64,000 nucleotides of DNA from Sphyrna mokarran. Taxonomy: Eukaryota. The stretch is from positions 85,808,001 to 85,872,000 of the forward strand of contig JAGIQG010000009.1 in the NCBI GenBank assembly GCA_024679065.1. The letters are read 5' to 3'. Below, piece by piece: positions 2,850 to 58,155 of the stretch. How positions within the stretch are numbered: position 1 is the first letter of the stretch; each line of letters starts with the position of its first letter. The position numbers and the translations under genes are program-made. Under the pieces are notes generated by a model. It was not told the origin of the DNA and made no database searches. It saw only the letters and a program-made list of their open reading frames with translations.

Positions 2850-3232
2850 ATTCTGGATGACTATTGGAAACGAAATAGGATAGGGGGTTATAGATGGTCT
2901 GTGGATTGGTAGATGTGATCACCCAACTCGTGGGCCCGAAGGGCCTGTTCTGTGCTGTATTGGTGCTAGTTTTCTATGTTCAATTCCTTGTTTGGGTCAC
3001 GGTTCTGTGTGGAGTTATGCCATTCCTCCCCGTGTCTGCATGGGTTTCCTCTGGTGCTTCAGTTTCCCCCTACACTCCAAAGCTGTGTGGATTAGGGGGA
3101 CTGGCCGTGTTAAACTACCCCTTAGTATCAGGGGGACTAGCTAGGATAAATGCATGGGGTTATGGGGATAGGGCCTGGGTGGTATTGTGCTTAGTGCAGA
3201 CTCGATGGGCCGAATTGTAGGGATTCTATGAT
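2850..3232 (+). mobile_element. CR1 3' tail fragment followed by an HE1/V-type SINE body
   Basis: gggcccgaagggcctgttctgtgctgta tail, then SINE core ccccgtgtctgcatgggtttcctctggtgct. Confidence 0.7.
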
Positions 3233-4061
3233 TCTGACCAAAGATCATCAAGCTGAAACATTCTCTGTTTCTCACTCTATAAAAAAACTGAGTGGAGCAT
3301 TTCCAGCATTTTTTTTTGTTTTAAATTCAAATTTCCAACTTATTCAGTATTTTGTTTTATAAAAGTCTTTCTCAATTTGAAAGCTTTAATTAACCTCAAA
3401 AATCCATAGTTTTACAAAGAGAATATTCTGGATTTACACCACCTTTTATGTGAAAAACTGTTTTCTGATTTCCCTCCTGAATGGCCAAGGTTTATGTTTG
3501 AGATGATGTCTCTTGTTCATGTTCCTCCCACCAGAGGGAGCCCTTTCTCTGTCTCTAAGCCCTTTCTGTCCATTGTAAATTAATTGAGTGTTTAATTGTG
3601 CTCAGGCACTGAGATTAATCAGGAATTCATTATAATCCTATTAATCAGGGTAAATTCACACTCTGTTTGTTGGGTTACAAGGTTTGTGTTTGTCTCTGTC
3701 AATAAAAAAAATTGTAAACAGGTAAAGATTAAAACAACAACTTGTATTTATGTAGCCCCTTTAACATAATAAAACGTCCTGTGGGGATTCACAGGAACTT
3801 TCTAATACAAGCTGTGACAGTGAGTTGTATCAGGAGATATTAGGCCAGAATAACAAGTATTTGGTCAGAGGTAGCAGTTAAGGATTGTCTGAGGCAGAGA
3901 GGGGGAGAGATTTAAGGAGGGAATTCCAGACGGTTTGGGCTCAAGCAGCTGAAGAACTGGTGAACAATGGCAGAGCGATTAAAATTGGAGTTGCTGAGAC
4001 CAACATTTAACATTTTAAACATTTCTATTAGATCATCACTTAATCTTCTGAGTCAACAAAA

Positions 4062-5710
4062 TGCAAGCTCAGTCTGTGTAACGTGTCCTTTTAATTTAAC
4101 TCCTTTAACCCCAGGAATATTCTGCTGAAACTTCACTGCACTCCCTCCAAGACTAATATATCCTGACAGATATACAGTGCCGAAAACTGAACACATTTCT
4201 CCAGATGGGAATAAAACAGATTCTGTACAGCTGGAACATAACTTCTGACCCTCAATATTCCAGCCCTTGAGATCAAGAACAGCATTCTTTAATGTTTCTA
4301 TCTGTCAATATATTTTTGGTTTTGAATCCCTAAATCTTTTGACTCATCCACAATTCCCAATTTCTGACTGGGGCAGCACAGTGGCACTGTGGTTAGCATT
4401 GCTGCCTCATAGTGTGAGGGACCCTGGTTCAATTCTGGTTTTAGGTGACTATGTTGGAATTTACACGTATTCCCGGGTCCTCTGGTTTCCTCCCACAATC
4501 CAAAGATGTGCAGGTCAGGTGAATTAGCTATGGTAAAAATGCAGGGTTACAGAGATAGGGCAAGGAGGAAAGCCAGGGTACATTGCTGCTTTTTTGGGTC
4601 TGCGCTGATTCTCCAAAGGACCAAATGCCCTCTTTTCTGGGATTCTTTTCCATAGATTTTATAGACCATGCCAGAAATTTGTTTGTTTTAGTTCCACAGT
4701 GGATGATCTGGCTATCCCACATTAAACTCAATCTGTTGTAGTTTCACCCACTCACAGTATCTGTTAATATCCCTTTAGAACTTTCTGTTCCCTTCGATGC
4801 AACTTATTGACCATCTGAACATTTATAACTTTGATACACAACTTTCCTTCACTGATACATTTATAAATGTGATGAACAGTTATGGCCCCAGTACAGATCC
4901 CACTAATCAGATTACTTACCCATTAACCCCAATCCCTGCCTCCGACCTCCCAAAACTATTCCCAGCCCAAGTCAAAAGACCCCATCCATATCCATTCCTA
5001 TTCACTCTCATTTTTAGCAACAGTCTTTTGTGTGGAACCTTATGGAAAACCTCCTGGAAATCTATGGAATAAACCCATAGACAATCCTTAATATTCTGTG
5101 TTAGTGACCTGCTCAAAATGCTCAGGAGGAGAAAGTGAGATAGAGAGGGGGAAGATTGTAGAAGGGGGGAAGTGAGATGTGGGGGGGAGGAGGTTGATGG
5201 AAGTTATTTGAGATCTTGAGGTTATACCAGTTGAAGACGCAGACAGCAATAGTGAAGAAATCAAATCAGGATGTTCAAGAGGCCAGAATTAAAGGAGTTC
5301 AGAGATCTCAGAGGGTTGTGTGGGTGGAGGAAGTTATAGGAAGGGGCAAGGCCATGGAGGGATTTGAAAACAAGATGAGAATTTTAACATGGGGCTGTCG
5401 CATGATTGGGAGCCAGTCAGTAAGCACAGGAAGTGATAGGGGAAAGGAGATTTGCCATGAGTTAAAATGTTGGTGGCAGAGTTTTGGATTGTCTCAAGTT
5501 TCCAGAAGTAGAGTGTGGGAGATCAGCGAGGAGAGTGTTGAACTGTCAAGTCTAATGGTGGGGAAGGTATGAGCGAGGATTTCAGCAGAAGAACAGCTGA
5601 GATCAGCTGACATTAGAGGGGAGCTCAGCAGTTTTAGTGTCCGAATCTCATCTCTGGGGCAACTATGACACTAAGGATCCAATTCTCAGAAATACAGAGA
5701 GGATCCCGGC
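4062..5710 (+). repeat. Segmental duplication copy 1 (mosaic of old CR1, SINE and L2 fragments); inverted copy at 42081-43996
   Basis: tgcaagctcagtctgtgtaacgtgtc (4062) is the reverse complement of 43971-43996; the end at 5643-5710 matches the reverse complement of 42081-42148; ORFs 5216-5572(+) and 42328-42711(-) are homologous. Confidence 0.9.
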
Positions 5711-6252
5711 TTAGGAAACCCAATTTCAGAATCCAGCCCCTGAAACCGGCACCCACCATTTTTGGCGCAGGAATGGAGTTGTGTTGTCTTTGCACACCTG
5801 TGCTTCAAAGAGACAGTGCACCTGTAAAAGTACAACAACTTTCAAACAAATCCAATTGTCAGTGGAATGTCTAAAACATGACATGTGGACTATAGGGCTC
5901 TCAGGGTAAAGTCTTAAATAGACAGAATTCTTGGGATGGATGCCAAGGGGCATCCTTTTGGTGAGGTAAGGTGTCCTTTTGGAGAAAAGCAGGGAAAGCT
6001 TCAGGAGAATGACATTTTGGAGAAGTAATTTGGAATTGTTGGAAACATGAATATGCATAAAAAGTGAAAAACTCATTGGAACTCTGTAGATATTAGAACT
6101 ATTAGGATCTGGCCAATGAGATGCAACAGAAGCTGAAAGAGAGAATGGGAGAAAGGAGTTTCCATTGACAACAGGGGGTTAAATATAAACGGTATACTGT
6201 TACAAAAAATAACAGCCTGATGGTGCTCAGTGTGATTGAACATTATCTACAT

Positions 6253-7339
6253 GGGCCCTGTGTGTTGTGCCAGTGGGGTTTATTTGCAGGCGGCCCTGTG
6301 TGTTGTGTCGGTGGGGTTTATTTGCAGGGGGCTCTGTGTGTTGTGTCGGTGGGGTTTGTTTGTCGGGGGCCCTGTGTGTTGTGTCGGTGGGGTTTATCTA
6401 TAAGGGGCCCTGTGTGTTGTGTCGGTGGGGTTTATTTGCAGGGGGCCCTGTGTGTTGTGTCGGTGGGGTTTATTTGTAGGGGCCCTGTGTGTTGTGTCGG
6501 TGGGGTTTATTTGTAGGGGGCCCTGTGTGTTGTGTCGGTGGGGTTTATTTGCAGGGGACCCTGTGTGTTGTGTCGGTGGGGTTTATTTGCAGGGGGCCCT
6601 GTGTGTTGTGTCGGTGGGGTTTATTTGCAGGGGGCCCTGTGTGTTGTGTCGGTGGGGTTTATTTGCAGGGGGCCCTGTGTGTTGTGTCGGTGGGGTTTAT
6701 TTGCAGGGGGCCCTGTGTGTTGTGTCGGTGGGGTTTATTTGCAGGGGGCCCTGTGTGTTGTGTCGGTGGGGTTTATTTGCAGGGGGCCCTGTGTGTTGTG
6801 TCGGTGGGGTTTATTTGCAGGGGGCCCTGTGTGTTGTGTCGGTGGGGTTTATTTGTAGGGGGCCCTGTGTGTTGTGTCGGTGGGGTTTATTTGTAGGGGC
6901 CCTGTGTGTTGTGTCGGTGGGGTTTATTTGCAGGGGCCCTGTGTGTTGTGTCGGTGGGGTTTATTTGCAGGGCCCTGTGTGTTGTGTCGGTGGGGTTTAT
7001 TTGTAGGGGGCCCTGTGTGTTGTGTCGGTGGGGTTTATTTGTAGGGGGCCCTGTGTGTTGTGTCGGTGGGGTTTATTTGCAGGGGGCCCTGTGTGTTGTG
7101 TCGGTGGGGTTTATTTGCAGGGGGCCCTGTGTGTTGTGTCGGTGGGGTTTATTTGCAGAGGGCCCTGTGTGTTGTGTCGGTGGGGTTTATTTGCAGGGGG
7201 CCCTGTGTGTTGTGTCGGTGGGGTTTATTTGCAGGGGGCCCTGTGTGTTGTGTCGGTGGGGTTTATTTGCAGGGGGCCCTGTGTGTTGTGTCGGTGGGGT
7301 TTATTTGTAGGGGGCCCTGTGTGTTGTGTCGGTGGGGTT
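6253..7339 (+). repeat. 38-bp minisatellite, ~28-29 copies, unit GGGGGCCCTGTGTGTTGTGTCGGTGGGGTTTATTTGCA
   Basis: Directly visible, highly homogeneous tandem array. Confidence 0.97.
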
Positions 7340-7615
7340 CAGTGTGTGGACAGTGATGTTGCGAAGCTGTTCTCCGGGTTGTGTTGGGTTGAGGGAGCCG
7401 CTCACTGGGAGAGACAGACTGATCCTGCCCCGGCGCTGGTGGTGATGAAGCGGAGTGAGCAGAGACCGGGAGATCTGGCTGTGTCTCTGCCCCTTTCTGT
7501 GTGTTTGGGAGTGGGGATGGGTTTGGGGTTCATGTCCTGATCTCTCTCTCTCTGTGTTGGGGGGGGGGGATTATTGTGTGTGTTTGAGGTTAATGTCCTG
7601 ATCTGTGTTTTTCAG

Positions 7616-7875
7616 ACTCTCACTTTCTCCGGTATTTCCACACATCAATGACCCCGGTTCCCAGTCTGCCGGAGTTTGTGGTAGTCGGTTATGTGGATGA
7701 GCTGGAGTTTGTTCATTATGGCAGTATCTGAAGAAGATGGTTCCCCGGCAGCGCTGGATGGCGGACAGTGTGGGACCCGATTACTGGGATGAGGAGACAC
7801 AGAAGCAGCAGGGCTGGGAGCAGGGGGGAAAAGTCGCTATTCAGATCCTCTCGGAGCGGACCAATCAGAGCGGCG
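7616..7875 (+). CDS. MHC class I exon 2 (alpha1 domain), 1-nt deletion near 7726
   Basis: ttttcag|AC TCT CAC = DSHFLRYFHTSMTPVPSLPEFVVVGYVDELEFVHYGS, then after the shift LKKMVPRQRWMADSVGPDYWDEETQKQQGWEQGGKVAIQILSERTNQSG|gtaag; NQS glycosylation site. Confidence 0.93.
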
Positions 7876-7915
7876 GTAAGTGACCATCTCCCCCCCCCCC
7901 CCCGCACTGAGCCGG

Positions 7916-8059
7916 GGGGCGGGGCATCCGGGTTCCTGTTAAACCTGATTGGCTGGCGGGAGTGGGGGCGCGCGTGCGCGCTTCATCCCGCTGTTTCCTA
8001 TTGGCTGCCCGAGCCCGCTGGGCGGGTGGGGGTCTCCTGTTCCTCTCTGTGATTGGCTG
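7916..8059. promoter_or_regulatory. Promoter-like motif cluster in intron 2: three CCAAT/Y boxes, GC boxes and an NRF1-like site in CpG-rich DNA
   Basis: ATTGGCTG at 7948, 8000 and 8052; GGGGCGGGGC 7916-7925; GCGCGTGCGC 7970-7979; GGGCGGG at 8020. Confidence 0.5.
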
Positions 8060-8077
8060 TTTCTGTGTGATTGACAG

Positions 8078-8350
8078 GGATCCACACCTATCAGGTGATG
8101 TATGGCTGTGAGCTGCGGAAGGACGGCAGCACCGCGGGATTTTACCAGTTCGGCTGGGACGGGAAAGACTTCGTGAGCTTCGATAAGGAGCGGAGCGTGT
8201 GGGTGACCCCGGTACAATGGGGGGAGATCACCAAGGCCAAGTGGGATAAGAACCAAGCAGAGAATCAGCAGCGGAAGGGTTACCTGGAGGGAATCTGCAT
8301 CGAGTGGCTGAATAAATACCTGCGGTATGGAGAGAGAGAGCTGAGAGCCG
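8078..8350 (+). CDS. MHC class I exon 3 (alpha2 domain)
   Basis: gacag|GG ATC...GCC G|gtgag, 273 nt; HTYQVMYGCE...GWDGKDF...ITKAKWD...YLEGICIEWLNKYL. Confidence 0.96.
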
Positions 8351-8467
8351 GTGAGTGAGTGAGGGGGAGATCTGGGGGTCGGTCCCCCGGGAATGGGGTC
8401 GGTTTAATTCAGTCTGTGTGGAGTTTCTCTGCTCCTGTGTTAATCTCTCTCTCTCTCTGTCTCTCAG

Positions 8468-8731
8468 TTGCTCCCACCGTCTCCTTTACCCGGCGGGGTG
8501 ACAGTAAGAAACTCTCCTGTGTGGCCACTGGCTTCTACCCTCAGTCTATCGAGATGAAACTGCACCGAGATCAGGCGGCTGCCGATGAGCCTTATTCCAG
8601 TGGGATCCGCCCCAACCACGATGGCACTTACCAGATGGAGAAACAGACCGACTTTGAACCGGGCGACTCGGCCAAGTTCTCCTGTGTGGTGGATCATGCC
8701 GGGCTGAACCAGAAATTGGTGGTGTTTTATG
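8468..8731 (+). CDS. MHC class I exon 4 (alpha3, Ig C1 domain)
   Basis: ctctcag|TT GCT...TAT G|gtaag, 264 nt; LSCVATGFYP...PNHDGTYQ...FSCVVDHAGL. Confidence 0.96.
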
Positions 8732-8957
8732 GTAAGACCATCTCCCCATGTGTGAGGATCCAGTCTGTCTCCCTCGCTATGGGAGAGGGTCAGTGCTGAG
8801 CTGTGTGAAGGAGTTCATTGTATCCCAGTGGGACTCATATCCAACACCATAGACTTCCCAGTATTTTCAGATATTATAATTTAATTGGTCTTTGTGCTGT
8901 ATGATGTTCCTGATGCCTGTTATGTAACTCTTTTTATCTGTTTTTTTTTCTCCTCAG

Positions 8958-9062
8958 AGCCAAAAGCTGACTCCAGGTTCCCAGTTATTATTGTCATTAT
9001 TATTGCTGTCCTGGTGCTTGTTGCTCTCACTGTTGTGGGTGTCATCCTGTACAAGAAGAAAG
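8958..9062 (+). CDS. MHC class I exon 5 (connecting peptide and transmembrane)
   Basis: ctcctcag|AG CCA...AAA G|gtagg, 105 nt; EPKADSRFPVIIVIIIAVLVLVALTVVGVILYKKK. Confidence 0.93.
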
Positions 9063-11849
9063 GTAGGAAATGGGCACCTAGTGGGTGGGGGAGGTACGTG
9101 AGATTATAACTTTTGAACTCCATGGAATGGCAAAACTTCACAAAGTCAAACAGTTGCATTTGGAGAGAGATGGTGAAATTGAATCATTGGAATGGATTTG
9201 CCCAGATGAGCATCTTTCTACAAAGCATCTGTTGTATGAATTGGAAGTTTAAGTTCATCTTGGAGGGTATGACCTGGTGGGCATTGCAACTCAATAATCA
9301 GGAATTAAAGATACTCAGAAATAAGATCAGGAAAATGATAGGATGGTGTAACCTTAATGATTATGGATAAATTCAGAACTCATATAATGAGAGGTATGAA
9401 GTGGAGTCATTCTGAATAGAATGAAAAGAGGAAAAGGATTGAAGGCTGGACTAGGAGTTGTGCATTGACACTAGTACAGCTGTTGTAATAGGTAGCAAAG
9501 ACTGGGTGTGAGGTTTATTCTTTCATAGAAATTAGGAAAAACAGATATGCAACTATCAGACAGACTGTGAAATTTCCAAATGTTTGTGGCATAGTTTTCT
9601 AATACAAATTCTAGAATCCCAGAATTAGCCTGGTAAATTTCACTGCACTGTCAAGAACAAGACCATCCTTCCTTAGAAAAAAAGACCAAAACTGCACACG
9701 GTATTCTAGGTGTGGCCTCATCAATGCCCTGTATAATTGCAACAACACATCCCTGCTCCTGTACTCAACCTTTTAAAGCTAACATGCCATTTGCTGTCTT
9801 TACCACCTGCTGTACCTGCATGCTTATCTTCAATGATTGGTGCAGAAGGACACCCAGGTCCCACTGCACACTCCCCTCTCCCAATTTACAACCATTCAGG
9901 TGGTAATCTGCCTTGATTTTGTTTCCAAAGTGAATACCCAATTTAGACTCCTAAAATCCAAAAGCTCCACTTGCCACAAATGGTAGTCGTGAACAATTCA
10001 ACAGACAACATAAAAGAAAAAGATACAAAAAAATTGCACAGACCCCGGTAAATGGGAAACAGACCAAAAAAAGCAAATTTTGTTCCTTTATGGAATGTGG
10101 TAAGGCCAGCATTTATTGCCCATCCCTAATTACTTACCAGGCCATTTCAAGGGCAGTTGCTAAAAGTCACCTAGGCTCAACCAGGTAAGGATGACAGATT
10201 TCCTTCCTTAAAGGACATTATGAACCAGATGGATTTTTACAATAACTGACAGTGGTATTTGAACCATTGTCTCCACAGCATTCACCTGGACTCTGGATTA
10301 TTACTTCAGTGGTGTTAGCACTGTGCTGGCCTTCCCAGAAAGTTACAAAAATAGATATGAAAAGAAATTTGTGTGGGGTAGCAAAATTAACGCATGAAGT
10401 AGATGAGGTGAAAAGTTTGAAACATTGGGCCCTTTGAAAACTGATGTATATTGTCAGTGGGAATACAAAATGGGGAACACGTCAGTATCTTCTGTAGAGG
10501 AAGAAAGCAGTGTGTCAGTAAATTTAATGTTCTCTGTGTGCCAGGGACTCAACACAATTCTCATTAATATTAAATGACATTGGATGGCGACTAAACCCCA
10601 AGGCCAGATAAGAGTAATGTTTGAATAGCAATCTCCAAAGCTTTTTCAATTGTATAACCATTCCTTTTAGATTGGAAAATTTATACTCCTCTCCCTTCAC
10701 TATTGAGAAAAGTGAAAGGGGGAGAGCAGGGAATTATAGATCCATTATCCTATTGTGAGTATCAGGAAATGATGAGAATCTAGCATTAAAGATGGGGTGA
10801 TTGAACACTAGTCTTTTCGGCTGCTCAGAGACAGCATGGATTTGCAAAGAGAACTTGCGTCAAATGACCGAATGAAGTGTTTGAAGAGGTGATTAATGTA
10901 AGTGAACACGTGAATTTTATCCGTACGAAAAAACATTTGATCAAATCTCTTGAGAGGATATTAAATAAAGCTTAAACTCATGAAATTTGAGGTCAATTAC
11001 TGACCTTGTTATCTTAGAACCTGTAAAAGACACTCGAACTCTTAAATTTATTGCACAAAATGTTTCCTTTACTGTGCTGACCCAATTTACCACAAAATTA
11101 CACGTGGCATTAAACTTCATTACACACAAAATAACTAAACTCTGTCCTTCTTCATTACAAGTATTCAAAAGTTATCAAAACTTCACAAAATTCAAACCCA
11201 TAGCTTGGACTTGAGAGATACAACTCAGTTTTGAGAGGGAGATTTTATCCAAGTGTGTATCTGAACATGTTTGTGCTTCACCAGCTATTTTTTTTCATGG
11301 CTTCAATTTCCTTCTGATTGTCCTTGCCTGTTGCATAATATTAATATATATTTGAGTTTTAGCTAGCTTTTTTTATTCCCCTTTGTAGGAGAAATCTAAT
11401 ACTGATTCTGTATTTTAAGAAGATTTCTCTTGGATTTATTTGGGTTTTTTTTTTGGTAATGCTAAGAGAGGTTTCTACCAGCTCAATCTTGTCTATTCTA
11501 TTGAGATTTGGGATTTTAAGCAGAGGATGGACATTTGAATAGGGCTTCCTATTCTTATCTGGTCTTTTGCCTCACATGTTTCCAGACCTTAATCCAAATA
11601 CTATTGCAGCACTATTTATTTTCTTTCAGAATATGATCCTAGTTTTAACACGTTTAGCTGGTGTTATAGTTATCATAAATGTAAATCTTCAATAGTCACA
11701 GCTCAAATTTTGTCCCCTATTAGCATACACTTGCTAACTTTCTTTTAAAAGCTCAATTAACCCAATATAGATAAATAATAGCTCCAATGTTTTTTTTAAT
11801 GTCTGTTGTACATTAATGTCCTCTAATTGTAGAGGAAATGTCTCCGTTA

Positions 11850-13601
11850 TGGAAATTATAGGCTGGTGAGTTTGACATCAGTGGTAGGGAAGCTGTTGGA
11901 GGGAATTCTTAGGATGTATAGGCACTTAGAGCGTTGCAATCTGATTAGGGATACACAGCATGGATTTGTTAAGGGGAGGTCGTGCGTTGCAAATTTGGTA
12001 GCATTTTTTGAGGAGGTGACAAATGGTTGACATCAACGGCTCGCCCTTCGTCTATATGGATTTCAGTAAGGCGTTTGATAAAGTCCCTCGTGGGAGGTTA
12101 GTTGAGAAGGTCAAGGCTCATGGGATACAAGGACAGGTAGCTAGATGGATAAGTAACTGGCTTGGTAATAGGAGACAGTAATAGTGGAAGGGTTTTTTTA
12201 ACTGGAGGTCGGTCACTAGTGGTGTGCCGCAGGGCTTGGTATTAGGACCTCTTTGTAATATACATAAATGACTTGGAAGAGGGAGTAAGTGGAGTGATCA
12301 GTAAGTTTGCAGATGGTACAAAGATGGCTGGACTTGCAGATAGTGAGGAGCATTGTCAGGCAATGCAGCAGGACATGGGTGAGTAGCTTGGGCAGACAGA
12401 TGGCAGATGGAATTCAATCCTGATAAATGTGAGGTGATGCATTTTGGGAGAAATATGATAAAGGGTAGACCTATTAAGAGTATAGAAACGCAGAGGGACC
12501 TGGTGGTGTAAGTCTCTGAAGGTGGCAGAGCAAGTGGAGAAGGTTGTGAAGAAAGCATATAGTATGCTAGCCTTTATAGGAAGGAGTATAGAGTACAAGA
12601 GCTGGCCTTTAATGTTGCAGTTGTATAAAACGTTGGTTAGACCTCATTTGGAATACTGCGTCCAGTTCTGGTCGCCTTACTACCGGAAGGACGTGGAGAT
12701 TCTGGAGAGAGTGCAGAGGAGGTTTACCAGGATGCTGCCTGGTATGGAAGGTCTGAGTTACGAGGAGAGGTTAGGCAAATTGGGACTGTTTTCCTTAGAA
12801 AGACATAGACTTGGAGATCTATAGAGGTATACAAGATTGAGGGATATAGACAGAGTAAACAGGGCTAAGCTTTTTCCTAGGATGGTCTCAGCACGAGGGG
12901 TCACGGGCTTAGGGTGAGGGGGGTAAGGTATAATTTGGATGCTAGAGGGAGTTTTTTCAGAGGGTGGGGAATGTGCTGCCAAGTAAAGTGGTGGAGGTAG
13001 GCACTCTGGAGTTATTTAAGAAATACCCAGATGGGCACATGAACAGAATGGGAACGGAGGAGTATAGAAAACTGATTTAAAATAGGGATCATGAGCCTTG
13101 GGAGTTCCTGGGAAGTGTGTAAATAGACAATGATATTGATGTGCTTGTTTTTATCCTACAGGTGCTTTGGTCCACCTTGTTGTCTAACAAGGGGCGTACA
13201 AGCGATGGGTCGTGAGGGGGCTGCTCTTGGAGTTTTTTTTTTGAGTCTCCTAGTGATTTACGTAGTTGGTGTATATTTGACCTGGACCATTTGATGGGCA
13301 ACATGACAGCTCAGTGACTATTGCTGTACTGTGCAGATACATGGATTTGGGCCTGTGTCTGTGGGAGTTTGCGTATTCTCCCTGTGCTTGCGTGGGTTTT
13401 CTCCGGTTTCCTCCCACATCCCAAAGATGTGCTCTTAGGCTAATTGGCAAAACAAATTCTCCCTAAATTGTCTCAAATTTGGTTTTTAATCCATAGATCT
13501 ATAAACAGACAGGGATCACGGATAGAGGTGGGAACATCGGGGTGGCGGTGTGGTCTCGTTGGGCCGAAGGGCCTGTTTCCCAAGCTGTTTGGTTCTTTGT
13601 C
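11850..13601 (+). mobile_element. CR1 LINE family B (SINE-containing 3'UTR), 5'-truncated, inside MHC intron 5
   Basis: RT C-terminus ([19 protein letters not shown]) and a long 3'UTR shared with five other copies. Confidence 0.9.
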
Positions 13602-14634
13602 TCCAATGACACTCATCTTTGTTGCAGCGACAATTATCAAGGTTACTGTGAACACTTGAGACCCAGATTCCTGTGGGCAGCACTGTGGCAAGCACTGCTG
13701 CTTCATAGTGCCAGGGAGCTGTGTTCAATTCTAGCCTTGGGTGATCATTTGTAAATTTCTTATTTTGTTATCGCAACTTACCATCCCACCTATTTTGGTA
13801 TCTATCATCTACCAATTTGGCTATGGTACCTTCTATCCCTGTATTCAAGTCATTATTAATGTAGATTGTAAGTAGTTGACCCCTGAGCACCGAACCCTAT
13901 GCACCCCAGTATAAACATCATGCCAACCACATGACTAATTTACCCTCTCTGCTTTCCTTTTGTTAGCCAATCTTCTATCCAAGATAACAAATTACTCCTA
14001 ATCCCATGTGACCAAACCTTGTGTATTAACCTTTCGTGTGTTATCTTATCAAATGCCTCCTGGAAGTCCAGATCTACAAAACCTACTAGATTCCTGTTAT
14101 TCATCTCGCTGGTTACAGGTTCAGAAAAAAATTATTAGTCAAAAATATTACTGCTTTTCTATTTGGAGGGAAGAATCAGGGTGGGGGAGAAGAGGTAATT
14201 TTGGTAGTGGGGAAGACACTTCTTCGAGAAGTTCTGGTTTGACCACACCTGAAATACTGGGAGCAGCTTTGGGCTTAACACTATAGGAAGAAGATATTTG
14301 CCTTCAGAGGAGTGTAGCTTGGCTGAAAAGGTGAGAGATTTTTTAAAAAGTTAGGAATGTATTCTCTTCAATCTTGGAAGCTGAGAAATGATCTAATGAA
14401 ATTTAAGGTAATGAGAATATATGGGAAGACACTGCTTTCACTGGCTGGGAGTCAGATTGTAGATTAGCTATGATCTCATTGAATGTCAAAACCACTTCTA
14501 TGACCCTGAATAGTCTCCTCCCATTATAATGTATTTATCTTCCTTTGTGTGTGATCCTGGCTGGGAGAGAGAAAATGATTGTGTCTCCTCTCTGAATGTT
14601 GTTCTCTGCTCACTGAGAATTCCTTGTTTTACAG

Positions 14635-14667
14635 CAGGGCAGAAGACTGGCTACAATCCAGCAAAGA
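14635..14667 (+). CDS. MHC class I exon 6 (cytoplasmic, Tyr-containing)
   Basis: ttttacag|CAGGGCAG...AAGA|gtaagt, 33 nt, phase 1; AGQKTGYNPAK. Confidence 0.85.
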
Positions 14668-14918
14668 GTAAGTGTGCCTCAAATCACTGCATCTTTATCT
14701 AAGAGCAGGAAACATTACTTGCACTCTGTGTACAGTCATTGGTTTATTGTTATCTTCATTGGTATGTGATGTCTCCCTTTTGTGTGTGTGTGTGTGAGAC
14801 GTCCATTCTCTTGTGTTTCTACGTGTCAGCCTCTGGCCCCCTCTGTACTTGTGACCCTCTTTGTGTCTGTGGCTCACTGTTGGTGAAGTTTTGTAATGCT
14901 TGTTTTTTTTGTTAACAG

Positions 14919-14965
14919 CTTCTGACAAAGCAGAATCTTCATCAAATTCTTCTGCTACTGCCTAA
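14919..14965 (+). CDS. MHC class I exon 7 (cytoplasmic, stop codon)
   Basis: ttttgttaacag|CT TCT GAC...GCC TAA; TSDKAESSSNSSATA*; possible donor AG|GT at 14967/14968. Confidence 0.85.
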
Positions 14966-16140
14966 AGGTGCGAACATTCCTGATCAATTGTGAGCAGATT
15001 GTGCACTGGCTTTGAAGTTGTTGTTTCCTGCACACTCAGCGTGGGAACTGGCTCTGCATATGTGCATTAAGGACGGGGAGGATTTTCCAGCCCTTCAGAG
15101 CATGTTCTTCAGCAATGGAGGCAGCTAACGGTTGGCTACCAATTGGGATTTTCTAGTCCCTGTGTCTGCACCATTGGCTACCTCTGGAGAATCTCGTCAT
15201 GGGTTGTGCAATTTGACACAGCTTAGGAATGGACCTCCTGGAGTAACGGACGTGAGGCATGGATATCTTGGGTAGTTGTGAGGGAGGAGTTGGGAACTGC
15301 TCTCATCACTGACCCGGGATGTGTCTGCTGTCAGCTGCTCCATGGGGACTTGTTTTGCCCCTCCTCCATAGTCATACATTACAGAAAAAGCCCTTTGGCC
15401 CATCGAATCTGCACCAATAATAGCCATTGGTAAATTCACATCAATCCTATTTTCATGCACTTATTTCAAATCCTTCAATATTATATTTCAAGTGCTCTTT
15501 ATATGTTTTTTAAAGGTTGTTTATCTTCCCAGACAGTGCATTCCAGATTCCCACAACTGAGTGAAAAAGCTTTTTTCAAATCCCCCCCACCCCCCCCCCC
15601 CAATCCTTGAATCTCCTGATATCCAAGATTTCCTGAACCTATTGCTCTTGCACTTAGCCCTAAACATGTTAATACTCTTCCCAGCTCCTTACTGAATGTC
15701 GCCCCACTCTGCTCTGCATGCCCCCCCCCCCTGCCACACTGCTCTGCCAGAAACTTATCCATTGTCAACTTTGGTCAAATCCTTCTTTATTTTACTAAAA
15801 TCTGCTTTTTCCCCAATTCAAAGTTGACTTTTGCAAGCCAATTTTCTCCTTCTCATAACAAACTTGAACTGTAACATGTTGTGCTCACTACTGCTGAGAT
15901 GCTGCCACGTTGAATACTTTCAGCTTCGTTTCCCCAGAACCAGATCCTACACTACAACTATCCTTTGGGCCTTCTGCTTACTGATGCAAGAAACTCTCTA
16001 GCTTAAACCCTTTACACAATGACAATCCCAATTTATTTTGGGGAAGTTGAAATTTTTCAGGATAGTTCACTGATGTGTGTAAGAAAGTAAATTATCTTTT
16101 ATATCTACTATCTCTTTCCTCCTGACTCTTTTGGGGACCT

Positions 16141-17200
16141 CAAAGAACAAAGAAAATTACATCTCAGGACCAGGCCCTTTGGCCCTCCAAGCCTGCACTG
16201 ACCATGCTGCACAACTTAACCAAAACCCCCTACCCTTCTAAAGACATATCCCTCTATTCCAATCTAGTCATGTATTTGTCAAGACGATGCCCCTTAAGTC
16301 ACCACCGTATTCGCTTGCACTACCTCCTGCAGCAATGAGTTCCAGGCACCCACTACCCTGAGGGGGGGCGTGGGGTGGAGAAAACCTGCCTCATACATTT
16401 CCTTTTAAACCTTGTCCCTCGCACCTTAAACCTGTGCCCCCTAGTAATTGATTCTGAAACCCTGGGGGAAAACCTTCTGATTATCCACTCTGTCCATGCT
16501 CCTCTCAATTTTGTAGATTTCTATCAGGTCACCCCTCAACTTCTGTCATTTTAGTAAGAACAAACCAAATTTCTCCAACTTCTTCTCATAGCTAATGATT
16601 TCCAATTCAGTCAACATCCTGGTAAATCTTTTCTGTACCCTATCTGAAGCCTCCACACCCTGTGTGGCGACCAGAATTGAACACTATATTGCAAGTGCGG
16701 CCTAACTAAGGTTTTGTAAAGCTGCAACATGAGTTGACAATTTTTAACTTAATGCTCCGACTGCTGAAGGCAAATACGCTGTATACCTTCGTGACTACCT
16801 GTCCACCTACATTGCCACTTTCAGTGACCTGTGTACCTGTACATCCAGATCCCTTTATCTGTCAAGACACTTAAAGGCTCTGCCATTTACTGTATATTTC
16901 CTACATGTATTTGACAGTCCAAAATGCATTACCTCACATTTGTCTGGATTAAACTCCATCTGCCATCTTTCTGTACAAGTCTCCAGCTAATCTATATCTG
17001 CTGTATCCTCTGATCCTCATTGCTATCTGCAAATTAATAACCTTTGTGTTGTCAGCAAACTTGCTGATCAATCCAGTTACTTTTTCCTCCAAATCGTTGT
17101 ATACTTGTACAAACAGCAAAGGTCCCAGCACTGATCCCTGAGGAGTGTTTCTTGTCACAGCCCTCCATTCAGAAACACCTTTCCACTGCCTGTGTCTTTT
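16141..17200 (-). mobile_element. Degraded CR1 3' part
   Basis: [11 protein letters not shown]...ISKFAD motifs; (CAAAGAA)n-type tail at 16141. Confidence 0.85.
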
Positions 17201-17689
17201 TTTGACCAATGGAAGTTATGATGTGGAGATGCCGGTGTTGAACTGGTGTTAAAATAAGCATTAAAGTAAACACCATCCAACCTTGTCTTACTCTCTTGAT
17301 GCTCAACATGGTTAAATTCTCTCTGCTATAGTAAAGGAAGCAAGTCAGTGTGTCTCTATTAATGTCCTGTGTCCTCTCCTACCAGACTCCTCCCAACAGC
17401 AATAGCAAAGCTATCCACAAAAATATTGGCCTAATGTGGATCCCGGGGCAAAATGTCCCATTTGTACATGTCCCACCGCCCCCAGAAAAAGTCCCAGTCA
17501 TCCAGCAAACTTAAATCCTCCTTCCTGCACCACCTCTTGAGCCATGTATTCATCTGTCCTATTTTCATTTCTCACTGGAACTGTTATTGGTTTTTGGAGA
17601 GCGATAGATCGGGTGGGAGGGGGTTGAGCCTGATGGGTTTGTTGTGTGGATTTGCCTCACTCTAACCATCTTTTATTTCTCTTCCTCAG

Positions 17690-19150
17690 TGACATTTTAT
17701 GGAGTTCAATCAACTAATGAATGGAGCTGATGAGAAAAATGGAGAGAATGGGTTTTCATCACTGACTCTTTCTGAAACTGATTGTAACTGCGATTGGGAG
17801 GGGGGGTGGGATCTGTACATACACAAATTTTGTGCTTTGAATAGGGAATACCTGATGAATTAAGCTTTAACTTGCACTGTTTGCGCAAACACTGGGAAAA
17901 TGGGTGGAATTTTCCATTCTGGAGATACGGTCTTATGGTAGGACTAAACAGGAATGACTTTGCTGAAGAGTTGAACACACACAGGATGTTGCGCTGTTCA
18001 ATTTGCTGATTTTTGCATCGGTGAGGAGGATGACATGGTGATACAGGCAGCAAGTGGTCTGACTCTGTTACTGCATAGGCTCTAACAAGTCCTTCAGTCC
18101 TTCACTCTGCTCCTTGACTGCTGTTCCCCTCACCCCTGTGCTACCACATGCTCAGATACGGACATGTTATCTCCAATACATTACTCCTCTTTACCCAGCC
18201 TTGACACTGTATGTAACTGATAACAGTGCGAAAGCAACACTTAGCCTCAAAGTCCAGGAGGAAGTCAAACTCATCAAGTGTGTTCTGCTTGTATACAGTC
18301 TTCCTGGTGGGATACTTAATTGCAGAGGGAATAAAACTCCAGAGTGTTGGCCCTTTAATCATTCATGAGATGCAAATAGCATTCTTGACATAGCTGTATG
18401 GTCTTTAACCCATCATGAAAATAGGGTACAAAGATTCCAAACTGACTTCTTGCCACTAGGAGTCTGATTTCTGATTTTCCATCAAATCTTTGCTATTCTA
18501 CCTGCTACAATTTCTGCTGCTGCTGAGAATGGAAAGTTCTGTCCACTGATTCATACATTGATTTCATTCTGGGGCTTGTTTGCAATACTGCATTTTAACA
18601 GTTAAATCTCATTCATTATTTGTGAGGGGAAGGGGAAAGATTCAATAGAGCAATGATTCAGATCTCCATCTCTCAGCTGCTGGCTCTCAAATGCACAATT
18701 GGGGTCTGGGAGTCCAACTGCACCAAGTCCAGCTGGTTTTTGCTGATTAAGTCCATGGGGCCTCGGTTCTGTACCATGTGGACAGCCTTGATTCTGCAGT
18801 AGGTGGGGGTGGGGAGCCTATTGAAGGGATCTGCTTCATAAGATTGTCCTGGGAAAAGCAAAGTGATTGGGAGGTACAACACAGCACAGGATACAGGCCC
18901 TTTGGCCTAACAAGCCCGTGCTGCCACCTCAATGTTTCCACTTCCACCCATGAGCCTTGTCTGTGTTGATAGAAATCTGCATTGGAACCAAATTGATTTA
19001 TGTTCCGTGACTTTACATAACACAGTTTTTGCTTGAGTAATTGGAGATTGGAAAGGAGTACTTGGTTATGCTTTGCAAAAGGTGATTTAATTTGTATTTG
19101 CTATTTTATATTAAATTCTAATAAATTAGATTTGGACTCCAAATCTGTCT
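17690..19150 (+). other. Probable non-coding terminal (3'UTR) exon of the MHC class I gene
   Basis: Branch-like TCTAAC (17661), pyrimidine tract and CAG acceptor ending at 17689; largely repeat-free sequence; AATAAA at 18330 and 19120. Confidence 0.5.
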
Positions 19151-19414
19151 TTGTCAAATGTATCTAACAAATAATAAGGAACATTCAAATCTTGTAACAA
19201 TCAAATTCCCCAAGTATCTCAGTGTTTAATATTAAAAGTGTGATTTATTTCAAACTTGTCAGAATGGATGGAAATCAAGAAATGGGAGGGAGGAAGTTGA
19301 GAAAATTACAGTCAGCAGGAAGTGCTTTTGAGAAAATTGGAATTGTGGACTGAGAACCCCAGGCCATTACGGATTTCATTCTATAATCTTGAAAGAAATG
19401 CTTCACAAGATAGT

Positions 19415-19765
19415 TAGAACATAGAACATTACAGCACAGAACAGGCCCTTCGGCCTTCGATGTTGCGCCGACCAATATAAAAAGCAATGCCCCTCCAAAC
19501 TAAACCATTCCCTTCTCTTCCATATACTTATCAACTAACCTCTTAAACGCCACCAAACTTGGCGCATCTACAACCGCTGCAGGCAGGGCATTCCACTCCC
19601 GAACCACCCTTTGGGTAAAGAACCTACCTCTGATATCCATCCATAACTATCACCCCTTAATTTAAAGCTGTGTCCCCTCGTGCTAGCTTTTTCCATCTGA
19701 GGAAAAAGGCTATCACTATCCACCCTATCTATACCTCTAATCATCTTATATGTTTCGATTAGGTA
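19415..19765 (-). mobile_element. CR1 family A 3' fragment
   Basis: (TAGAACA)n tail; similar to 22635-22980. Confidence 0.88.
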
Positions 19766-19769
19766 ATAG

Positions 19770-21990
19770 TTGATGCATGAGTTTAAATCTTCCAAAATTT
19801 CCCAGATTTGGAGGTTTCTGTTAAATTAGAAAATAACAAATATAATTCCCTTTGTTCAAAAGGGGAGACAGAAAGCAGGAAACTACAGGCTAGTTAGTCT
19901 AACATCTGCCATGGAGGAAACGTTAGTCATTATAGAAAAAGTTGTAACCAGATGCTTAAATTCAAACAATCAAGCAGAGCCAACATGGTTTTGTGAAAAA
20001 GGAAATTCTGTTTAAACACTTGTATTGAAGTTCCATGTAATATGGGTAAAGAGAAATTGGTAGATATACTATTTGGATTTCTAGAGACATTTGATAAGGT
20101 GCCATATCAAAGGTTATTGTAAATCAAAGCTCATGGTGTGTGGGTAATATATGCATGAATTGCAGATTGTTTCCTGTTAGTTTAACCAGTTGGTATAAAT
20201 GGGTCTTTTTCTATTTGGCAGGAATGAATTGTGTACCATGGATCAGTGCTGGGCCTCAACTTTTTACAGTGTATATATAAATGGATAAATCTTGATAAAT
20301 TTGCTCATTGCTTATGTGTCAAAGCAGACATTGAGGATGTTACAAAGGGATATGTCAAATGGAGTATAATGTGGACAAATGGAAAGTTTCCATTTTTGGC
20401 AGGAATTAAATAAAAGTAACTGAAATTGTGAGAAATTGCAGAGCTGATATGCACATAGGAACACTAACAATGTTATTTATTTTGAGGGGAAACTAATTAC
20501 AAAGATAGGAAGGTTATGCTTATGTTGTACAAGGCATTGGTGAGACCACATCTGGAATATTGTATATAGTATTGGTTTCCTTATTTAAGAACAAAACAGC
20601 ACGGAAAACAGGCCCAACGAGTCCACGCTACCACCCCAATGTTCCCACCTCTACCCGCGATCCCTGTCCATGTTTATAGATCTATGGATTAAAAATCAAA
20701 TTTGAGACAATTTAGGGAGAATTTGTTTTGCCAATTAGCCTAAGAGCACATCTTTGGGATGTGGGAGGAAACCGGAGCACCCGGAGAAAACTCACGCAAG
20801 CACGGGGAGAATGCACAAACTCCCACAGACACAGGCCCAAATCCATGTATCTGCACAGCACAGCGATAGTCACTGAGCTGTTGTGTTGCCCATCAAATGG
20901 TCCAGGTCAAGCGTACACCAACAACGTGAAGCACTAGGATACTCTCAAAAGATCCAAGAGCAGCCCTCTCATGACCCATCGTGTGTATGCCCCTCGTTAG
21001 ACAACAAGGTGGACCAAAGCACCTGTAGGATAAAAACAAATACATCAATATCATCCATCATCTATTTACTCACTTCCCAGGGACTCCCAAGGCTCATGAT
21101 CCCTATTTTAAATCAGTTTTCTATACCCCTCCATTCCCATTCTGTTCATGTGTCCATCTAAGTATTTCGTAAATAACTCGAGTGCCAGCCTCCACCACTT
21201 TACTTGGCAGCGCATTCCATACCCCCACCACCCTCTGTGTGAAAAAACTCCCTCTAGCATCCAAATTATACCTTACCCCCCTCACCTAAGCCTGTGACCC
21301 TGCGTTCTATTTGAGTCCATCCTAGGAAAAAGCTTAACCTTGTTTACTCTATCTATCCCCTTCATAATCTTGTACACCTCTATTAGATCTCCTCTAAGTC
21401 TACGTCTTTCTAAGGAAGACGGTCCCAATTTGCCTAATCTCTCCTCATAACTCAGACCTTCCATACCAGGCAGTATCCTGGTAAACCTCCTCTGCACTCT
21501 CTCCAGAGTCTCCACGTCCTTCTGGTAGTAAGGCGACCAGAACTGGACGAAAAGATGTAAAAGGCTTAACAGGCAGTTCAGAAAAAGGTTTACTGGATTA
21601 ATACTAGGAATGGGTGAGTTGTCTTATGATAAAAGGCTGGAGAGGTTTTGTGTATCCAGGAAAGTTTCGAAGAGTAAATGACAAATTGAGCCATACACGG
21701 AGAAAATGTTTCCTCTTACGGGAAAATCTAGAACAAGGTCACTGATTTACAAATAAGAATATTTAAGATTGAGATGAGGCAAATGTATTTCTCTCACACT
21801 GAATTCAGTCTCTGGAACTCCCTTTTCAAAAGGCAGTGGAAACAGAACCTTTAAATCTTTTTATTAACAAGGGGGTGAAAGGGATTGGGGATGGACAGGA
21901 ATGTGGAGTTGAGGTTGCAATCAGAAGCCACAATTTTAGTGACTGAGCGGGCTTAAGAGGCCAAATATCCTATTCCTGTTCTTAATTCAT
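19770..21990 (+). mobile_element. Old CR1 relic interrupted by a CR1 family B copy (20587-21549, minus strand)
   Basis: RT remnants ([13 protein letters not shown]) resume after 21549; the insert matches the family B 3'UTR. Confidence 0.8.
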
Positions 21991-22397
21991 ATGATCGTAG
22001 CAGCAAGTGTCAGAGTAAAACACAAGCATTATCAACAAAGGTAAATGCTGAATTTAGAGTGATGAAAAACTGACCTTAATTAATGCCAAAGAAACAATAA
22101 ATGGTGCAAAAATAAAATGTTCAACCGCAGGACACAAAATGGGAGGTTGATGTCGAGACACTTGAAGTCCAGACAAAAATGCTGATTGAATTTTAGAGAC
22201 TTTTGAAAAGGGATTAACAAAGAGGAAAAGATCAGCAACATTATAGGATAGAAAAGTGCAGAAGCAAAGCTAGGGGTTCACGTATACATTAAATAAAACC
22301 TGATCTGCTTGCATTGTCACATTCAAATTAATGAGAAAATCCCCAATGTTGCTTCAATATTTAAGAATTGGAAGAATAAATGAGGCAGGTATAGATC

Positions 22398-24576
22398 ATA
22401 GAACATTACAGCACAGAACAGGCCCTTCGGCCTTTGATGTTGCGCCAACCAATTAGGAAAAAGCAATGACCCTCTAACCTAAACCATTCCCTTTTCATTC
22501 ATAAACTTATCTACTAACCTCTTAAACGCCACCAAACTTGGCGCATCTACAACTGCAGCAGGCAGGGCATTCCATACCCTTACCACCCTCTGGGTAAAGA
22601 ACCTACCTCTGACATCCGTCCTATAACTACCATAGACATAGAACATTACAGCACAGAACAGGCCCTTCGGCCTTCGATGTTGTGCCGACCAAAATAAAAA
22701 GCAATGCCCCTCCAAACTAAACCATTCCCTTCTCTTCCATATACTTATCAATTAACCTCTTAAACGCCACCAAACTTGGCGCATCTACAACAGCTGCAGG
22801 CAGGGCATTCCACTCCCTAATCACTCTTTGAGAAAGAACCTACCTCTGATATCCGTCCTATAACTCATACCCCTTAATTTAAAGCTGTGTCCCCTCGTGC
22901 TAGCTTCTCCATCCTAGGAAAAAGGCTATCACTGTCCACCCTATCTAAACCTCTAATCATCTTATATGCTTCAATAAGATCCCCTCTTAGCCGCCTCCTT
23001 TCTAACGAAAACAACCTCAAATCCTTCACCTCTCTTCATAGGACCTGCCCTCCATACCAGGCAACATCCTGTAAACCTCCTCTGTACCCTCTCCAATGCC
23101 TCCACATCTTTCTTATAATGTGGGGACCAGAACTGCACACAATACTCCAAGTGCGGCCGCACTAGAGTTTTGTACAGTTGCAACATGATGCTGCGGCTCC
23201 TAAATTCAATCCCCCTACCAATAAAAGCTAAGACTCCATATGCCTTCTTAACAACTTTATCCACTTGACTGCCTACTTTCAGGGATCTATTGACACATAC
23301 ACCAAGATCCTTCTGTTCCTCAACACTATTAAGAGCCCTACCATTAGCCCTATACTCTACACATTTATTGTTCCTGCCAAAGTGCATTACCTCACACTTT
23401 TCCACATTAAACTCCATTTGCCACCTCTCGGCCCAGCTCTGCAACTTGTCCAAGTCACTCTGCAAACTATAACACCCCTCTTCACTATCTACCACTCCAC
23501 CAACTTTAGTGTCATCTGCAAATTTACTGATCCATCCCTCAATACCCTCATCCAGATCATTTATAAAAATTACAAACAGCAGGGGCCCCAAAACAGACCC
23601 CTGAGGCACACCACTCGTCACCGAACTCCACGATGAATATCTCCATCAACCACCACCCTCTGTCTTCTATCTGCCAGCCAATTCCTAATCCAATTAGCTA
23701 AATCACCCTCTATTCCACACATCTGCATTTTCTGTAGAAGTCTTCCATGGGCCACCTTATCAAACGCCTTCCTAAAGTCCATATATACTACATCAACCGC
23801 CTTACCCCAATCCACCTCTCTGGTCACTTTCTCAAAAAACTCAATGAGGTTAGTAAGGAGGTTACCACTCCTTAATTTAAAGCTATGTCCCCTCGTCCTA
23901 GCTTTCTCCATCCTAGGAAAAAGGCTATCACTGTCCACCCTATCTAAATCTCTAATCATCTTATATGTTTCAATAAGGTCTCCTCTACCGCCTCCTTTCT
24001 AACGAAAACAACCTCAAATCCCTCAGCCTCTCTTCATAAGACCTGCCCTCTATACCAGGCAACATCCTGGTAAACCTCCTCTGTACCCTCTCCAATGCCT
24101 CCACATCTTTCTTATAATGCGGGGACCAGAACTGCACACAATACTCCAAGTGCGGCCGCACTAGAGTTTTGTACAGTTGCAACATGACGTTGCGGCTCCG
24201 AAATTCAATCCCCTACCAATAAAAGCTAAGACTCCGTATGCCTTCTTAACAACCTTATCGACTTGATTGCCAACTTTCAGGGATCTATGCACATATACAC
24301 CAAGATCCCTCTGTTCTTCAACACTATTAAGAGTCCTACCATTAGCCCTATACTCTACACATTTGTTATTCCTGCCAAAGTGAATTACCTCACACTTTTC
24401 CACATTAAACTCCATTTGCCACCTCTCGGCCCAGCTCTGCAACTTGTCCAAGTCTCTCTGCAAACTACAACACCCCTCTTCACTATCTACCACTCCTCCG
24501 ACTTTGATGTCATCCGCAAATTTACTAATCCATCCTTCAATACCCTCATCCAGATCATTTATAAAATGATCTGGAT
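22398..24576 (-). mobile_element. Head-to-tail array of three CR1 family A fragments
   Basis: Tails at 22398 and 22635, third segment from ~23862; RT ORFs 22971-23621 and 24161-24493. Confidence 0.9.
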
Positions 24577-25680
24577 TATGGACCTATTGGTCTCACATTT
24601 AGAGTAAATGAGCATTCGGACAAGCATGATTATCAGAGATCCCAAAGTGAACAAAGTACAGCAATAGGAACAGGCCCTTTGGCCCTGCAAGATTTAGTTA
24701 GATCGTGCTGCCCTAACTAAAAAAATCCAGCCTTTACTCGATCTGTATCCCTCTATTTCCTCCCTATTCACGTATCCATCCAGATGTCTTGTAAATATTG
24801 GTAATGTGCCTGCTACCACTTTATTGTCTGGCAGCATGTTCAAGGCACCCACCACTCTGTGTGGAAAAACTTCCTCACACAAATCTCTCAAACTTTCTCC
24901 CCTCACCTTGAACCTGTGCCCTCTTGTAATTGACCCTACCAACCTTGAAATAAGCTTCTAACTATCCTGTTTATACCTCATAATTTTGGAGATTTTATCA
25001 GGTCATTATCAGCCTCCGTCTTTCCAGTGAAAACAATCTTAGTTTATTCAACATCTACTCATACCCAACATCCTCAAGGCCAGGCAACATCTTGATGAAT
25101 TTTCTTTGCACTCTCTCCAAAGCTTCCACGTCTTTCTGATAGTGTACCAAACAGAACTGCATCCAATAACTCTAAATGCAGCCTAACCAAGGCTTTATAT
25201 AGCTGCATCATGATTTCCCAACTCCTGTACTCAATGCCCAGGCCGATGGGGGCAAGTACACCATATGCCTTCTAAATTACCTGGGCCACCTGTATTCTTC
25301 GAGTGATCTATGGACCTGCATGCCCAGATCCTCTGTAAATGTTCTATCATTTACAGTATAATTCACAATTAAATTTGATCCTCCAAAATGTATCACCTGA
25401 TATTTGTCTGGGTTAAATTCCATCTGCCATTTCTGTGCCCAAATCTCCAATTTATCTACAATTCTCTTCTATCCTCTGACAATCCTCGGCACTATCAGCA
25501 ACTTTGCCAATCTTTGTGTCATTTGCAAACTTACTAATCAAACAAACACATTTTCCTCCAGATCATTTATATACACTACAAACAATAGAGATCCCAGCAC
25601 TAAAACCGTGCAGAATACCACTAGCTACAGATTTTCCATTCTGAAAAATACCCACCGCTATTCTCTGTCTTGTAGAGCCA

Positions 25681-25877
25681 AGATGTGGAAATGCCTATGT
25701 TGGACTGGGGTAAACACCTTAAGAAGTCCCACAACACCTGGTTAAAGTCCAACAGATTTATTTGGTAGCACAGACCACCAGCTTTCAGAGCGCTGCTCCC
25801 CACTCTCATCTGATGAAGGAACAGCGCTCCGAAAGCTAGTGGCTTATGCTACCAAATAGACCTGTTGGACTTTAACC
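25681..25877 (+). mobile_element. Short hairpin Penelope-like-derived element with a hammerhead-like core
   Basis: Inverted arms 25740-25770 / 25847-25877; CTGATGA...GAAA at 25810-25834. Confidence 0.65.
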
Positions 25878-39880: not shown

Positions 39881-39890
39881 CCAGATAGTT

Positions 39891-41155: not shown

Positions 41156-41264
41156 GCTTTTATGGATACTGTCCTGTAGAATAGCCAATGGGCTCGAAAT
41201 GTTAACTGCATTTCTCTCCCCGCAGATGCTGACAGACCTCCTGAGTTTACCCAGCACGGAAACA

Positions 41265-41945: not shown

Positions 41946-42080
41946 TAGCTCTACAAAGTCTTCCGTCTTGTCTTTTTAACATTACCTGTCCTGTTCCCAT
42001 TATTCAACACTTTTAGATTCTAGTCCTTCTATCAGTATTACCAACTTAACAGCGACAATATTTCACCATATGCTCCTCTC

Positions 42081-58150: not shown

Positions 58151-58155
58151 GGTGG

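Follow-up and report, generated by a model that had tools for sequence, protein, structure and literature searches.

An MHC class I gene in the genome assembly of the shark Sphyrna mokarran (GCA_024679065.1) lacks a single base in the exon encoding its alpha1 domain, which raises the question of whether this shark carries a disabled classical class I gene or whether the lesion arose during assembly. The gene lies in the 64,000-nucleotide stretch of contig JAGIQG010000009.1 that we analyzed (positions 85,808,001 to 85,872,000, forward strand; hereafter the window), and the original prediction had regarded it as a duplicate or null allele, inactivated not long ago, of the classical, UAA-like lineage. 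Its assignment to that lineage is supported by phylogeny, anchor residues and linkage to TAP2-like and PSMB8 genes. Inactivation, on the other hand, is no longer the best reading in view of an intact twin of the gene and of RNA, under the same species label, that contains the missing base. Instead, the window copy is probably the second allele of a single classical class I gene, retained as an uncollapsed haplotype and bearing a one-base consensus error, and the disabled gene is probably not a real feature. The prediction had itself allowed for an assembly error on account of one-base indels elsewhere in the window, and this is now the favored explanation. The weights given below to this reading and its rivals are judgments and were not computed.

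The window copy and its inverted twin

As predicted, exon 2 is 260 nt long with AG and GT at its borders, and its frame, read from position 7618, runs for 37 residues through CAT TAT GGC AGT ATC to the stop codon TGA, with the remainder of alpha1 in a different frame (Table 1). The letters assembled at 7723-7731 are AGTATCTGA, while the intact form would be AGTGATCTG. The prediction that all other exons and splice sites are intact holds for exons 3-7, which are open and are each preceded by AG, exons 3-6 also being followed by GT, but not for exon 1, which the window copy lacks. Among all ATG...GT exon candidates on both strands of 184 kb, the sole leader exon recovered was that of the twin (score 76 versus 25 for the runner-up), and a search of the genome with this exon and its promoter returned one full match and otherwise short distant matches only; another genome search for exon 1, in which 40 of 3506 candidates were scored, was swamped by a SINE. 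The window copy begins at 2851, 1.7 kb into intron 1, and has no promoter. Thus, as assembled, with no exon 1 and with a stop in exon 2, it does not constitute a complete open gene from leader to cytoplasmic tail.

The twin does constitute such a gene. It lies inverted at a distance of 24 kb from the window copy, to which it is 98.5% identical; its exons 1-6 translate without a stop, its exon 7 is the same as that of the window copy, and the only exon 1 and promoter of the pair belong to it. An inverted match of 11.9 kb at 98.5% identity terminates at a 100-N gap. At its inner end the arm of the window copy starts within a LINE tail, following a C-rich tract of low complexity (~2750-2850), and the junction here has no N gap, both arms and the spacer lying within one contig. 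The ratio of indels to substitutions at this end is 12:12 (the substitutions being from the same two 250-bp bins), versus 31:246 (gap openings to substitutions) in six diverged flank segments (Fisher p 1e-5), which gives it the appearance of a noisy read end. The 38-bp repeat of intron 1 (6253-7339) is a possible PCR marker for separating the window and twin types.

Table 1. Features of the class I region of Sphyrna mokarran. Plain numbers are window positions; numbers prefixed G000:C1548 are scaffold positions.
Feature	Position	Strand	Remarks
Inverted near-copy arm of twin region G000:C1548:85781666-85797709	2851..18123	+	98.5-98.8% identity; starts inside intron 1
Arm inner end	2851..3025	+	12 single-base indels vs twin in 175 bp, behind C-rich tract
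38-bp tandem repeat, class I intron 1	6253..7339	+	28.7 copies; ~780 bp longer in twin
Exon 2 (alpha1)	7616..7875	+	260 nt, AG...GT; one base short after 7725; stop 7729-7731
Exon 3 (alpha2)	8078..8350	+	273 nt, open; 3 non-synonymous differences vs twin
Exon 4 (alpha3)	8468..8731	+	open; twin identical
Exon 5 (connecting peptide and transmembrane)	8958..9062	+	open; twin identical
Exon 6 (cytoplasmic)	14635..14667	+	open; twin identical; RNA contig continues from exon 5 into exon 6
Exon 7, coding part up to stop	14919..14965	+	open; twin identical
3' flank	18124..49765	+	second version from G000:C1548:85966771, directly after 31-N gap, where twin contig stops
30-bp tandem repeat where window contig ends	49743..52825	+	104 copies
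30-bp repeat, other version	G000:C1548:86013055-86013576	.	18 copies, ~100 bp before PSMB8 exon 1
100-N scaffold gap	52826..52925	.	
Noisy contig start, duplicated 36.5 kb downstream	52926..60422	+	96.6%; 170 single-base indels, 72 substitutions
Twin exon 1 (leader)	G000:C1548:85799394-85799442	-	
Twin exon 2	G000:C1548:85791910-85792170	-	261 nt, open; 97% identical to window exon 2
TAP2-like gene, 11 exons	G000:C1548:85702552-85761160	-	
TAP2-like gene, 11 exons	G000:C1548:86055244-86117334	+	

Placement in the classical lineage

Class I molecules anchor the termini of their peptides by means of Y7, Y59, R84, F/Y123, T143, K146, W147, Y159 and Y171. With HLA numbering set by anchor offsets, all of these are present in the window copy (F at 123), along with the C101-C164 pair and the glycan site at N86, just as had been claimed. 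Four of them, Y7, Y59, Y159 and Y171, are also named in PMC8236899, which gives PDB 6LUP as Gici-UAA*01 of the nurse shark. The YGS reported in place of YDS, the form found in most relatives, was likewise recovered: Asp or Asn occupies HLA position 37 in all 18 of the Triakis sequences listed, versus Gly in the window copy and the twin. As a sign of decay this Gly was considered and rejected, since the same residue is found in the intact twin and in an expressed RNA contig.

The phylogeny of alpha1-alpha3 that had been proposed as a check puts both copies in the classical clade. It comprised 42 rows, with the window copy entered with X at the break, 33 reference proteins hand-picked from 125 listed rows (none of them named UBA, UCA, UDA or UEA), and 7 of the 14 other class I loci of this genome, namely those with both alpha1 and alpha2. 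The window copy and its twin are sisters (100/99), are joined with Triakis and Mustelus (100/99), and belong to a clade of 20 rows that includes 6LUP (95/91); the other class I genes of this genome (at 95.6-95.8 Mb, at 91.4 Mb and in clusters at 91.0-92.2 Mb) fall in separate clades. Since a nurse shark protein labeled as non-classical also falls inside the classical clade, the assignment depends in part on linkage and expression. A non-classical lineage for the window gene was rejected on the basis of both tree and linkage.

Among the nearest counterparts, the polymorphic class I proteins of the banded houndshark Triakis scyllium (O46821, O46836, O46840 and O46847) show 75-79% identity over alpha1-alpha3, and class I models of Mustelus asterias share the clade of window copy and twin, one Mustelus leader being identical to that of the twin. 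The two Sphyrna copies differ from each other in only 8 residues besides the break and, unlike the Triakis and Mustelus sequences, the window copy as assembled is frameshifted and without exon 1. Among known structures, the one that alpha1 matches best in sequence is Gici-UAA*01 (6LUP; E 4e-30), which is 63% identical over alpha1-alpha3; however, the nurse shark belongs to a different order from Sphyrna, and the tree sister of Gici-UAA*01 is Q8WLW4, the protein labeled as non-classical.

With respect to linkage, PSMB8 is located ~200 kb away and TAP2-like genes lie on both sides of class I. In the elasmobranch assemblies surveyed in PMC10751288, MHC-Ia is a single gene next to psmb8/9 and tap1/2, and additional MHC-Ia-like genes near the Ia gene are also reported. 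In comparison with the region described there, the class I gene of Sphyrna likewise lies within 0.5 Mb of PSMB8 and of TAP2-, PSMB9- and TAP1-like genes, but class I body and TAP2 appear twice here, as opposed to the single Ia gene with tap1, tap2, psmb8 and psmb9 of that account.

Further class I sequences were encountered in this genome. A relic alpha2 exon (L058:1490-1770; G000:C1548:85952464-85952712, + strand) with a frameshift and a stop is 62% like that of the window and is wedged between LINEs, with no class I exon seen alongside. Two more class I genes, at G000:C1548:89629563-89629829 and 93317296-93318912, are 64-65% like the window alpha2; the one at 93.3 Mb groups with proteins of Squalus, Pristiophorus and Heterodontus, outside the classical clade.

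Differences between the copies, transcripts and reads

Leaving the break aside and counting substitutions, the two copies differ at 10 of the 533 nt of exons 2 and 3 and at 15 of the remaining 7127 nt of positions 7340-14999 (p 3e-6); exons 4-7 show no difference. All 8 changed codons are non-synonymous (the chance of this for 10 out of 10 substitutions is 0.10, which is not significant alone). They map to about HLA positions 50, 55, 67, 73, 77, 114, 152 and 156, as placed by anchor offsets, and we take 67, 73, 77, 114, 152 and 156 to be groove-lining positions. Being confined almost entirely to groove residues of exons 2-3, the differences are likely to be allele-like. A comparable pattern is seen among 17 class I sequences of Triakis, with a median of 26 differences in alpha1-alpha2 versus 1 after it.

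The first 108 coding nucleotides of exon 2 are identical in the two copies. The break falls in codon 39, for which the twin has GTT (Val), the window AT, and all 18 of the Triakis sequences listed have Asp. That the gap should coincide with a codon at which the copies differ points to a single real change accompanied by an error; otherwise the same codon would have to have changed twice. Continued neutral decay is not apparent, in that there is no synonymous difference and exons 4-7 are the same as those of the twin, although a very young lesion would look alike. A patch at 15500-16000, beside a poly-C tract, shows 22 substitutions and 14 indels with respect to the twin in surroundings that are 99% alike, and represents either noisy consensus or a diverged tract.

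It might be argued that the second haplotype was falsely duplicated but that the deletion is real, in which case the animal would be heterozygous for a null allele of classical class I whose transcript would likely be lost to nonsense-mediated decay. The surroundings of the deletion lend this some credence: it is not part of a homopolymer, and the stretch is clean in other respects, with every other single-base indel relative to the twin in 7340-14999 occurring at a homopolymer. The prediction was correct in placing the deletion outside a homopolymer, but this is a weak argument for a real lesion because 33 of the 97 single-base deletions in a noisy stretch of the same window (52926-60422) also have no like base alongside, and the assembly contains many such deletions. 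Moreover, null alleles of a sole classical class I gene are expected to be rare, to judge from HLA.

From 18 listed runs the reads of four were placed on window positions 7350-9100. One of these, X2, carries the same species label and, presumably an RNA run, behaves as spliced RNA: depth is in the thousands over exons and at most 12 over introns, introns 2 and 4 are bridged by GT..AG joints, and a loose end extends into exon 6. Spliced reads, which had been called for as a check, are thus present, with exon-restricted depth and intron-skipping joints. An X2 contig covering 7652-7775 (depth 2111) has a G inserted behind 7725, yielding AGT GAT CTG, and a single synonymous change at 7745. The contigs covering 7746-7876 (depth 2601) and 8232-8302 (depth 2788) have zero differences from the window and therefore carry its own residues; a second contig over 8232-8302 (depth 2063) has two differences, at positions not listed, and the depth over exon 4 is 4293. 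Among the rows listed, none has the letters of the twin at 7753-7837, 8261 or 8273, and a letter of the twin is listed only at 8144. Window-type sequence with the G is, then, a live, highly expressed allele in the X2 sample. The intact letters that were to identify the gene as intact if found in reads do occur in X2 RNA, from a sample that is not tied to the assembled animal.

A promoterless copy could not supply about half of the RNA of the locus, and the expression seen in X2 thus counts against the window copy being one. As for a null allele, the X2 allele is nearly identical, intact and expressed; it differs from the window at 7745 and is to that extent not strictly the same allele. The X1 contigs leave exon 2 uncovered, and one X16 read over 7725 lacks the G, which may favor a real deletion; this read could be of the deletion type, of the twin type or from another allele. 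If there is a second haplotype, a consensus error is much more probable than a null allele: the gap falls on a differing codon, the assembly contains errors of this kind, and a near-identical allele is intact. Accordingly, we consider a heterozygous null very improbable. Window-type, twin-type and further variants differing at groove positions were seen in X1 and X2 and may be alleles. At 7434 and 7475, both assembled copies have C where X1, X2 or X16 have G, which could mean that both derive from one haplotype.

Of the 36 raw reads placed from X15 and X16, 15 match at >=95% and 21 at >=90%, the rest being mostly poly-C loose ends, and the mean depth is 1.27x over 29 of 30 bins (the poly-C bin was left out). 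For a genome of 2.77 Gb the expectation is ~17 reads (1.39x) from one locus and ~34 (2.8x) from two, and the probability of 21 or fewer reads from two loci is 0.009 at 2.77 Gb, 0.08 at 3.3 Gb and 0.32 at 4.0 Gb. These counts, drawn from ~3% of two runs of one sample and pushed low by GC bias and read filtering, would fit one locus, with a contrast that weakens if the genome is larger.

Two versions of the PSMB8-TAP2 block

The doubling is not limited to class I but takes in ~45 kb of flank as well as a second TAP2, its pieces alternating along the scaffold and being cut at scaffold gaps. Identity between the two versions of the flank falls with distance from 98% to ~85%, and numerous repeats are inserted in just one of the two. 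The twin contig is cut at the equivalent of window 18123|18124 by a 100-N gap, and its remainder is found 185 kb away behind a 31-N gap, i.e. it is one contig cut and scattered. Gaps are present at borders of the duplicate (the outer end of the twin, the start of the second flank and position 52826), though none is present at the inner junction. The second flank leads to PSMB8, which is 88-90% identical to shark PSMB8 proteins, to a TAP2-like gene, and to exons that, as recognized from their translations, are presumably PSMB9-like (one) and TAP1-like (several). The contig to the left of the twin, when reversed, is collinear with this PSMB8-TAP2 stretch and carries the second TAP2-like gene. 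The interleaving of contig pieces indicates that two versions of a class I-TAP2 block alternate along the scaffold. No other gene was detected between 18000 and 50000 of the window, with none of 34 ORFs matching Pfam (the test covered ORFs of >=60 aa beyond 18000; 168 low-repeat ORFs of >=45 aa were listed).

Noisy patches that went uncorrected are present in this assembly. Window positions 52926-60422, whose duplicate lies at the equivalent of 89471-96987, are likely an unpolished read overhang with uncorrected error of the long-read type. Among 51 LINE copies of the region, four have 11-26 gap openings versus a background of 2-6; the two copies that the window arm contains, with 5 and 2 gap openings, do not exceed this background.

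As a single cause, a second haplotype would account for the allele-like differences and the expression of window-type sequence, for there being only one exon 1, for the noise at the inner end, and for the interleaving and the doubling of flank and TAP2. We envisage that the class Ia haplotypes were too different around PSMB8-TAP2 (by roughly 2-20%) to be merged, giving rise to a second contig, whose overhang of ~16 kb, roughly one long read, would have extended into the class I gene, where the haplotypes are almost alike, and broken off within intron 1 as a noisy read end. Such an end would explain the lack of exon 1. Mixing of reads from the two alleles, GAT and GTT at codon 39, might then have led to one base being dropped at exactly that codon. 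A class Ia heavy chain pairs with beta2-microglobulin and presents TAP-delivered peptides to CD8 T cells, and the putative product of the window allele in the animal, a normal chain, would do the same. The gap-free inner junction has to be assumed to stem from a chimeric read or from gap-filling.

Ko et al. (2022; PMC9516828) describe heterotype false duplications as frequent, in many cases located on one scaffold next to gaps, with half depth and errors. The present case resembles those in its two versions on one scaffold, its gap borders, its location in a highly heterozygous kind of region and its errors. It differs from them in the gap-free inner junction; the main tests in that account are half depth and one-copy k-mers in the assembled animal.

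The chief rival is a real inverted segmental duplication of class I-PSMB8-TAP2, in which the window copy would be a promoterless pseudogene with a true neutral deletion, PSMB8 would have decayed, TAP2 survived, and gene conversion kept the class I bodies alike. In its favor are the location of both arms and the spacer in one contig with a gap-free inner junction, flanks that are diverged by 2-15% and carry numerous repeats inserted on just one side, two TAP2 genes that both look complete with their 11 exons, and the extra MHC-Ia-like genes reported near the Ia gene of elasmobranchs in PMC10751288. So is the state of PSMB8. The second version of the block, at G000:C1548:~85772000-85778100 (L016-L017), keeps a homologue of PSMB8 intron 4 (78-92%) and the sequence that follows the gene, but has a LINE in place of exons 5-6; no second PSMB8 was found, the gene being single in the genome. 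The absence of these exons, due either to a real deletion or to the assembly having jumped from one repeat to another, together with the single genomic PSMB8, fits a decayed paralog block and speaks against a haplotype pair, and the fact that no convergence of the two versions was found beyond TAP2 also counts against a simple haplotype pair. Nevertheless, a real duplication accommodates the RNA and read counts less well, and we hold it to be unlikely. The same poorer fit applies to a more specific form of it, in which the class Ia region is a real palindrome whose promoterless arm, as a silent store of alleles, swaps groove sequence with the functional gene by conversion, while the old duplication keeps a diverged TAP2 and has lost PSMB8; this we regard as improbable.

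The two versions of TAP2 are 81-91% alike over exons 2-8 and 98-99% alike over exons 9-11 (exons with up to 60 nt of flank); their first exons differ by one 21-bp repeat unit, and their introns align in patches only. In counts at the codon level, two of seven exon pairs were out of register and were left out. These versions are either deep allelic lineages or old paralogs. Haplotype lineages of the nurse shark were reportedly described by Ohta et al. in 2002. PMC5824609 and PMC6523485 document that processing genes linked to class I vary between haplotypes in sharks, frogs and teleosts, and that PSMB8A/F are duplicate genes in sharks.

If the window copy is indeed a second allele with a consensus error, then this animal has a single classical class I gene, both alleles of which work, and gene counts and pseudogene calls in the class Ia region of this assembly are unreliable. 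The assembly would also contain the class I-PSMB8-TAP2 block of a shark in both of its haplotypes, a by-product more useful than the finding itself, and the pattern of TAP2 divergence would allow a direct test for old haplotype lineages of co-evolving class I and TAP in sharks. Should the duplication instead be real, a promoterless, near-identical class I arm and a second TAP2 would alter the single-Ia picture for Sphyrna mokarran. The 30-bp repeat that ends the window contig with at least 104 copies, versus 18 in the other version, could affect the PSMB8 promoter.
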